From sequence record PQ438391.1: a stretch of DNA of 64,000 nt, one strand, 5' to 3'. Below the pieces are notes generated by a model. It did no database searches. It had not been told where the DNA came from and saw only the letters and a program-made list of their open reading frames with translations. Shown one piece after another: positions 20,573-21,388 of the stretch (the first letter of the stretch is position 1; every line of letters begins with the position of its first letter). The position numbers and the translations under genes were made by a program. The stretch comes from Escherichia phage vB_Eco_T-01.

Positions 20573-20912
20573 AATTTTGGTTTTATGTATAGGATTAATT
20601 TCATTTTCTGCTTCTGCGTCAGCAGATACATCATATACTGAAATTAGAGAATATGTAAACCGCACTGCGGCAGATTATTGTGGGAAAAATAAAGCATGCC
20701 AAGCTGAATTTGCACAGAAATTAATATATGCATATAAAGACGGAGAAAGAGATAAATCAAGCAGATACAAAAACGATACATTATTAAAACGATATGCTAA
20801 AAAGTGGAATACCTTAGAATGTTCAGTTGCGGAGGAGAAAGATAAAGCCGCTTGTCATTCAATGGTTGACCGTTTGGTAGATTCTTATAATCGAGGATTG
20901 AGTACTAGATGA
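20565..20912 (+). CDS. vs: secreted protein in the vs position
   Basis: 115 aa with signal peptide; assignment by position only. Confidence 0.4.
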   Translation: MTKILVLCIGLISFSASASADTSYTEIREYVNRTAADYCGKNKACQAEFAQKLIYAYKDGERDKSSRYKNDTLLKRYAKKWNTLECSVAEEKDKAACHSMVDRLVDSYNRGLSTR

Positions 20913-21388
20913 TTGTAAAATATATCAAGGGCGATATTGTCGCCCTCTTTCTTGAAGGTAATATTATTGCGCACGGATGCAATTGTTTTCATACAATGGG
21001 CAGTGGTGTAGCTGGTCAATTAGCAAGAGCCTATCCCAAAATTTTAGAAATAGATAAAACCACTACTGAGTACGGTTCTCGTGATAAATTAGGCGATATG
21101 TCTATTGTTTTTAAACATAAACCTAATGGTTTTGGCATATGTTATAACTTGTATACGCAATACGAACCAGGTCCTAATCTTGATTATGGTGCTTTAGTAA
21201 ACTGCATGATAGAATTAAATCTACAGGCAGAAACCCTTTTGTTTAAACCAGTAATTTACATTCCACGTATAGGTTGTGGTATTGCTGGCGGCGATTGGGA
21301 TAAAGTTTCTAAATTAATCGACATGTTTACTCCTGATATTGATTTAATAGTGGTGGATTATGAAAGTACATTACCCGCATCCGTTTGA
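20909..21388 (+). CDS. macro-domain-like protein (tk.4 position)
   Basis: 159 aa; macro-domain-like motifs GDIVALF...NIIAHGCNC...GSGVAGQLA and IPRIGCGIAGGDW. Confidence 0.6.
   Translation: MIVKYIKGDIVALFLEGNIIAHGCNCFHTMGSGVAGQLARAYPKILEIDKTTTEYGSRDKLGDMSIVFKHKPNGFGICYNLYTQYEPGPNLDYGALVNCMIELNLQAETLLFKPVIYIPRIGCGIAGGDWDKVSKLIDMFTPDIDLIVVDYESTLPASV

Follow-up and report, generated by a model that had tools for sequence, protein, structure and literature searches.

DarT toxins, which ADP-ribosylate DNA, provide a widespread defence against phages, and the resistance of T-even phages to DarT is explained by phage "orphan antitoxin" hydrolases, namely AdfN, which acts on guanine, and AdfM, which acts on thymine. 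AdfN is the NADAR protein encoded by T4 gene 30.3, and deals with guanine ADP-ribosylation by DarTG1 (PMC11825919). AdfM comes from the HIDEN-SEQ preprint of 20 November 2025, in which a T4 transposon library was screened on Escherichia coli expressing DarTG2. The gene tk.4 was the single significant match in that screen, being dispensable on a plain host and needed only in the presence of DarTG2; its clean deletion sensitised T4 to DarTG2, and it was renamed adfM, for "anti-DarT factor Macrodomain" (bioRxiv 10.1101/2025.11.20.689424). Our literature search found no second paper connecting tk.4 with DarT. An A1pp/macro match of tk.4 orthologues had been reported already in 2006 (PMC1524935). 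Here we analyse a 64,000-nucleotide stretch of Escherichia phage vB_Eco_T-01 (PQ438391.1; hereafter the window), which carries at 20909..21388 (+) an intact, ATG-started open reading frame (ORF) of 159 amino acids whose stop codon lies within these coordinates in the ORF listing. We consider it probable that this ORF, as the orthologue of T4 tk.4/adfM, encodes a macrodomain ADP-ribosylglycohydrolase that acts as an orphan antitoxin against host DarTG2, probably by a route that uses a glutamine. Gene and role are already known; a preliminary description of this DNA, made from the sequence alone, interpreted the ORF correctly, but that interpretation had been published for T4.

Lying between vs and tk.3, the ORF is the positional orthologue of T4 tk.4 (NP_049723). 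The local order on one strand (regB, vs.1, vs, the tk.4 ORF, tk.3, ..., tk, rI) is the same as in T4 and in phage 310Ecol104PP. The window is collinear throughout with T4 coordinates 81.8 to 17.7 kb, read on the other strand, and a 3.5-kb stretch around the ORF is matched by 487 phage records at 95–99% identity; the window is part of the genome of a T4-like myovirus (Tequatrovirus). T4 Tk.4 aligns to the ORF product over its full length, with 57–58% identity over 155 amino acids, and both belong to PHROG 335, which the ORF product matches with an E value of 2e-71. The two loci have in common the slot, the orientation, the ATGA overlap with vs, a hairpin near the 5' end and the fold class, and the two proteins, 155 and 159 amino acids in length, agree at all 14 residues that are invariant in the family, including H22, N25 and Q84. 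They differ in the second glycine-rich loop, which reads GAGIGKGNW in T4 and GCGIAGGDW here.

Sequence and structure comparisons agree in placing the protein among the macrodomains. The glycine-rich macro motifs quoted in the preliminary description, KGDIVALFLEGNIIAHGCNCFHTMGSGVAGQLA and IPRIGCGIAGGDW, are all present in the translation of the 159-residue ORF. The Pfam Macro model PF01661 matched at 33.1 bits (cut-off 22; E 6.2e-8) over 117 of its 118 positions, and sequence matches to solved macrodomains included BT1257 (1.9e-10), Poa1p (1.8e-9), SCO6735 (8.6e-8), Mycobacterium tuberculosis DarG (1.4e-5) and TARG1 (0.009). An AlphaFold2 model built from a 64-sequence alignment had a mean predicted local distance difference test score of 94.0 and a predicted template modelling (TM) score of 0.89, with disorder confined to the last four residues. 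Foldseek comparison of this model with the PDB returned first TARG1 (E 1.2e-9, TM score 0.72–0.82), Poa1p, BT1257, both DarG macrodomains and SCO6735, and later viral and MacroD-type macrodomains; the top 50 matches were all macrodomains or hydrolases designed on macrodomain scaffolds. The structural check that had been proposed for the macro fold was therefore positive, and the protein is a macrodomain, with a predicted three-layer alpha/beta/alpha fold of the ALC1/TARG1-like class. The family is large, with 782 homologues at E≤1e-5 and members in 2,776 of 50,697 phage records from many host genera, ranging from Escherichia to Bacillus.

Conservation was scored in an alignment of 64 homologues reaching down to 39% identity, in which 14 columns were invariant: H22, G23, N25, C26, G33, A35, D49, N80, Y82, Q84, P119, G122, G124 and W130. 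Most of these fall in three segments. The first glycine-rich loop, which would bind substrate and phosphate (residues 22–35, HGCNCFHTMGSGVA, 20972..21013 (+)), holds H22, G23, N25, C26, G33 and A35; the segment NLYTQ (residues 80–84, 21146..21160 (+)) holds N80, Y82 and Q84; and the second glycine-rich loop, expected to bind the diphosphate (residues 119–130, PRIGCGIAGGDW, 21263..21298 (+)), holds P119, G122, G124 and W130. The loop glycines are G31-S-G33 and G122-C-G124-I-A-G-G128. The ADP-ribose-binding loops and the conserved asparagine, whose absence would have spoken against the original assignment, are thus present and invariant, but the catalytic lysine of DarG and TARG1 is replaced by an invariant glutamine. 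Q84 stands opposite K84 of TARG1 in a profile alignment and opposite K80 of Thermus aquaticus DarG in a MAFFT alignment with DarG, TARG1 and BT1257, and it corresponds to Q85 of SCO6735. BT1257 and SCO6735 both carry glutamine at this position and align to the ORF product unambiguously; H24, N27 and Q85 of SCO6735 correspond to H22, N25 and Q84 here.

The substitution is informative in light of published work on SCO6735. Its Gln85 is structurally equivalent to the DarG and TARG1 lysine by superposition, and the enzyme outpaces DarG and TARG1 in stripping thymidine-linked ADP-ribose (T-ADPr) from DNA modified by DarT, can rescue E. coli from this toxin and is inactive on guanine-linked ADP-ribose (PMC9411070). 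All activity was lost in the Q85A and Q85E variants, and H24 and N27 were also among the residues mutated; the authors proposed a water-mediated mechanism in which the glutamine positions the substrate (PMC9411070). SCO6735 (PDB 5E3B) and BT1257 (PDB 2FG1), the latter being the best PDB match to the ORF product by sequence, resemble the phage protein in being stand-alone proteins of about 150–160 amino acids, with the His and Asn of the H-x-C-N motif, Gln in place of the catalytic Lys, and a loop, PRIGCG(L/I)AGG(x)W, that is nearly the same. They differ from it in that their genes are bacterial chromosomal genes and not counter-defence genes of a phage, and they are 23–28% identical to it.

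By analogy with these enzymes and with T4, we can postulate the following course of events. On infection, DarT2 would ADP-ribosylate thymidines in single-stranded phage DNA and so block replication. Tk.4, made from an early regB-vs-tk.4 transcription unit, would bind the ADP-ribose through its two glycine-rich loops and N25 and hydrolyse the thymine-N3-ribose bond, freeing ADP-ribose and restoring replicable DNA. Catalysis would most likely be independent of lysine, as in SCO6735, with Q84 positioning the substrate and a water molecule. The hydrolysis of T-ADPr as the chemistry, the glutamine mechanism and the anti-DarTG2 activity of this particular allele, which is 57% identical to the T4 protein, are all proposed here by extension from T4 genetics and characterised relatives. 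The experiment suggested in the preliminary description, infection of a DarTG host with and without the gene, has been carried out by others for T4, with a positive result (bioRxiv 10.1101/2025.11.20.689424).

Several observations weigh against this proposal. The removal of ADP-ribose from DNA by T4 Tk.4 was itself proposed by analogy (bioRxiv 10.1101/2025.11.20.689424), and 43% of the positions in the allele described here are different from those of the T4 protein that was tested. In one MAFFT run the gap was shifted, such that Q84 faced H82 of DarG instead of K80; because of this different gap placement, the equivalence of Q84 with the lysine rests mainly on the alignment to BT1257 and SCO6735 and on the published superposition. 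The ORF product has no equivalents of K34 and K89 and lacks the longer mobile loop (by 5–6 residues) of SCO6735; a 6-column gap follows Q84-Y-E in the alignment to BT1257, at the site of the extended loop. A mobile loop about 5 residues longer than that of TARG1 and DarG is said to mark the SCO6735 subclass, and the high DNA activity of SCO6735 has been tied to this loop together with K34 and K89 (PMC9411070). Finally, profile scores of 75.6 bits for BT1257, 63.9 for TARG1, 60.8 for SCO6735, 60.0 for Poa1p, and 48 and 42 for DarG do not assign the phage family clearly to the SCO6735/BT1257 branch. Our reading is that the protein may work like SCO6735, but because the loop said to define the subclass is missing we refrain from counting the protein among its members. 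To the literature this adds, modestly, a Lys-to-Gln active site that would link T-even AdfM mechanistically to SCO6735 and not to DarG.

The DarG macrodomain (T. aquaticus, PDB 5M31/5M3E; M. tuberculosis, 5M3I) is of the same fold class (Foldseek E 2e-8 to 7e-8, TM score about 0.73–0.76) and presumably shares the substrate, thymidine-linked ADP-ribose on single-stranded DNA. The two differ in that Lys80 of DarG is Gln here, and in that DarG, at about 330–340 amino acids, has a C-terminal DarT-binding domain that is absent from the 159-residue phage protein. DarG was the sole hit in PADLOC, and the match covered the macrodomain part alone (model positions 3–144 of 329), which lends weaker support to the anti-DarTG2 role; the NCBIfam DarG equivalog scored 27.8 bits against a cut-off of 250. 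We therefore ruled out that the gene is a true DarG captured from a DarTG2 operon, as the catalytic Lys, the C-terminal domain and a darT neighbour are all lacking and the equivalog score is far under its cut-off. The neighbours of tk.4, namely vs, vs.1 (SLT), regB, tk.3 (DUF7202) and a zinc-binding ORF, contain no ADP-ribosyltransferase (ART) or DUF4433 domain, and no darT is adjacent. The same comparison bears on the idea that Tk.4 neutralises DarT2 mainly by binding the toxin, and not by hydrolysing ADP-ribosylated DNA. The canonical catalytic Lys is indeed absent, and SCO6735 Q85A, although catalytically dead, still inhibits DarT in vitro, and does so more strongly than inactive DarG or inactive TARG1 (PMC9411070). 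However, the DarT-binding domain of DarG is missing, a binder would need to track diverse DarT2 toxins, and H22, N25, Q84 and both loops are invariant in distant homologues, pointing to retained catalysis. Toxin binding as the main mode of action therefore seems quite unlikely to us, and hydrolysis remains the preferred explanation.

Human TARG1 (OARD1/C6orf130), the best structural match, is similar in class and size, and also reverses DarT-made T-ADPr and U-ADPr, the corresponding uracil mark (PMC13036486). It differs in its K84/D125 dyad, which is Q84 and A126 in the ORF product. The breadth of action of such enzymes raises the question of whether thymidine-linked ADP-ribose on DNA is the main substrate, or whether protection from DarTG2 is a side activity of an enzyme directed at uracil-linked ADP-ribose in RNA, at Glu/Asp-linked ADP-ribose on protein, or at the marks left by the phage's own enzymes Alt, ModA and ModB. 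Further substrates cleaved by both SCO6735 and TARG1 are Glu/Asp-linked ADP-ribose on protein and, in RNA, ADP-ribose on N3 of uracil (PMC9411070, PMC13036486), and the spread of the family over so many phage records may exceed exposure to DarTG2. Against this, tk.4 of T4 is required only with DarTG2, and the literature cited here describes no bacterial defence that ADP-ribosylates uracil in RNA. Alt, ModA and ModB modify arginine, and we know of no cleavage of the arginine linkage by ALC1-like macrodomains; the connection to T4's own ADP-ribosyltransferases that the preliminary description had drawn found no support. A different main substrate is, on balance, unlikely, and T-ADPr on DNA is the one that we favour.

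A third possibility concerns Poa1p of yeast, which resembles the ORF product in sequence and fold and is among its best matches in both. The two have the H-x-C-N-C motif in common, including Poa1p H23, which is mutated in PDB 6lfs. The RefSeq label of T4 tk.4 ("phosphatase; contains A1pp phosphatase motif") and the name of PHROG 335 ("phosphatase") would likewise fit an ADP-ribose-1''-phosphate phosphatase that clears a by-product of RNA 2'-phosphotransferase reactions. The name, however, is a domain-transfer annotation from 2003–2006 and not the outcome of an assay, and the sole known phenotype of tk.4 is DarTG2-specific. We know of no Tpt1/KptA-type pathway that makes ADP-ribose-1''-phosphate in T4 infection, and we regard this function as very improbable. 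Of the three roles in the preliminary description, which were to erase ADP-ribose from DNA or from protein or to degrade signals derived from it, erasure from DNA is the one supported, by the T4 tk.4 knockout and its DarTG2 phenotype; for the degradation of ADP-ribose-derived immune second messengers, such as Thoeris signals, we found no evidence. The latter draws only on a general proposal that certain macrodomains associated with TIR systems act on cyclic ADP-ribose derivatives (PMC9503650). The tk.4 family has no sequence, structure or literature link to such signals, and the substrate of all its closest characterised relatives is ADP-ribose attached through C1'' to a base or an acidic residue, so that we give signal degradation almost no weight. 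None of these explanations has positive support that is specific to the ORF product, and an anti-DarTG2 hydrolase is the reading carried forward here.

The name AdfM has also been given to gp104 of phage PhiKZ, which biochemical work has shown to take DarT2-made ADP-ribose off a TNTC oligonucleotide (Cell Rep 2026, PMC13309987). This chimallivirus protein is, like the ORF product, a stand-alone phage macrodomain with the same proposed role. It differs in its DarG-type motifs VNVVGVMGAG, FPTK (with the Lys retained) and PPLGCANGGL, its similarity to the ORF product is marginal (BLASTP 23 bits, pairwise E 0.001), and it is imported into the phage nucleus, a structure that T4-like phages do not have. 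Common lineage with PhiKZ AdfM is ruled out by the DarG-type motifs and the marginal similarity; two different macrodomain lineages carry one name and one proposed role.

Compared with its surroundings, the tk.4 gene is strongly divergent from that of T4. Amino acid identity to T4 is 99% for regB, 100% for vs.1 and vs, 57% for tk.4, 93% for tk.3, 99% for tk and 100% for rI. The rate of synonymous substitution (dS) against T4 is 1.56 in tk.4, and is therefore saturated, compared with 0.03–0.15 in the flanking genes except for tk.3 (0.49). Along tk.4, dS is 0.42 in codons 1–25, followed by saturation, and the gene forms a sharply bounded island of divergence at 20970–21390. The ratio of nonsynonymous to synonymous rates (dN/dS) is 0.25, and tk.4 is therefore under purifying selection, which gives the proposed anti-DarTG2 role some weaker support; positive selection or recent adaptive change as the source of the divergence is unsupported, given this ratio and the saturated dS. 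The pattern is typical of an old but functional allele acquired through recombination, with breakpoints in the first ~25 codons and near the tk.3 overlap. Phage ES12 carries exactly the same protein (100% identity), 318 phage records hold versions with at least 90% identity, and this type of allele is found in ES12 and RB9. An origin of the family in a bacterial toxin-antitoxin pair was considered. In Pelagimonas, the one bacterial homologue inspected (40% identity) stands alone, surrounded by housekeeping-type genes and with no ART in the vicinity, and a single locus of this kind is uninformative about origin. The adjoining tk.2/tk.1 segment (21574–22148) is also replaced relative to T4, with tk.2 54% identical and tk.1 without a match, and includes a 74-residue ORF with a phage zinc-binding domain (PF23895) at 21563–21784.

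It is conceivable, if doubtful, that the tk.4 slot is an exchangeable cassette in which the ES12/RB9-type and T4 alleles are functionally distinct. If this were true, the alleles could be tuned to different DarT2 variants, and other targets would be possible, such as uracil in RNA or a nucleic-acid ADP-ribosylating defence that has not yet been described; the lysine-free, short-loop site would then represent a third type of mechanism among the hydrolases of base-linked ADP-ribose. That the allele diverges in the manner of a cassette is itself a modest addition to the literature.

The gene is closely packed with its neighbours. Its ATG (20909–20911) overlaps the TGA stop codon of vs (20910–20912) in the sequence ATGA, and a Shine-Dalgarno-like GAGGA read from the sequence lies 11 nt 5' of the ATG at 20893..20897 (+); tk.4 is likely to be translationally coupled to vs. 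At its 3' end the ORF shares 29 nt with the next ORF. Upstream of the regB-vs.1-vs-tk.4 run, a consensus scan gave as its best site a sigma-70-like promoter match with a TG extension (TTTACT-17-TATAAT, 19502..19530 (+)), and we tentatively propose early transcription of these four genes from it. Promoter-like sites in the region were not more numerous than in shuffled sequences (17 against 21.3 ± 5.5), making this weak evidence for the site. A terminator-like element, consisting of a perfect 8-bp GC-rich hairpin AGGGCGATATTGTCGCCCT followed by CTTTCTT, is located 20 nt into the tk.4 ORF at 20928..20946 (+). The hairpin is identical in T4, forms in the RNA fold of both the window and T4, and coincides with a "terminator" annotated in two GenBank records. 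The 66-nt fold around it was not significantly more stable than shuffled sequences (z = -1.4), and we do not count it as a significant RNA structure although the stem is perfect and kept in T4. A possible function is that of a terminator or mRNA-stabilising element of the vs transcript, limiting the expression of tk.4. Some 5.3 kb upstream on the same strand lies an orthologue of nudE (15135–15587 (+), 98% identical to T4), which in T4 is annotated as a Nudix hydrolase with ADP-ribose listed among its substrates. One may speculate that its product removes the free ADP-ribose that the macrodomain would release.

The window holds two anti-DarT loci. The second is adfA (gp61.2, anti-DarTG1 factor), full-length at 60984–61607 (+), which matches PF23813 with 453 bits and is 96.6% identical to T4. 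Its presence in the same window is a further, weaker line of support, and suggests therefore that this phage lineage invests in anti-DarT functions. Directly 3' of adfA is a truncated AdfA-like paralogue of 108 amino acids (61641–61964 (+); 31 bits, model positions 130–211), which shares 36% identity with the C-terminal portion of T4 gp61.2. This paralogue is located in a 308-bp segment without a T4 nucleotide match, upstream of the retained part of 61.1.

Other differences from T4 are scattered along the window. In the place of b-gt/segA, an ORF of 280 amino acids from the TET-associated glycosyltransferase family (56255–57094 (+); PF20691, E 2e-10) showed no nucleotide similarity to T4. The glucosylation of hydroxymethylcytosine probably differs from that of T4, and we presume it to be T2/T6-like. 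Five ORFs on the + strand (7353–7598, 10389–10859, 10984–11544, 16112–16393 and 16878–17348), in the ipI, e.8-rnaC and ipII-ipIII-denV neighbourhoods, are absent from T4 at these places; they begin with MKT(Y/F) or MKSY, followed by EF(L/I) and E(A/S), and one belongs to DUF7412. Their start resembles the capsid-targeting leader of T4 internal proteins, and the five look like variable internal-protein cassettes. Differences of the size of mobile elements occur at 44441–45061 (+), 25238–26220 (+) and 9130–10000. Between the a-gt and 47 regions there is an inserted ORF with weak similarity to GIY-YIG proteins; where T4 has the mobD region, the window has a y05I-like putative transcription factor (PF24449/PF24448) and a membrane ORF; and the segB region of the tRNA cluster differs from T4. 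At the end of the window (63372–64000), gene 61 is followed directly by a dCTPase-like ORF (63432–63947) with a weak dUTPase_2 match, which we take to resemble T4 gp56. T4 has dam between 61 and 56; a comparison of 626 nt of T4 dam with the window gave no match, and dam appears to be absent between gene 61 and the dCTPase-like ORF.

The basic picture of T-even resistance to DarT is unchanged by this locus, as it has already been published, and our additions to it are modest. What the locus does confirm is that Tequatroviruses retain the anti-DarTG2 gene, though in the form of very different alleles. It also indicates that the enzyme of T-even phages, far from being a copy of DarG, is a lysine-free macrodomain resembling SCO6735. 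Separating T-even AdfM from PhiKZ AdfM avoids confusion between two unrelated proteins of the same name, and the lysine-free site bears on the prediction of DarTG2-resistant phages and on the choice of catalytic mutants, for which Q84, and not a lysine, would be the residue to change.

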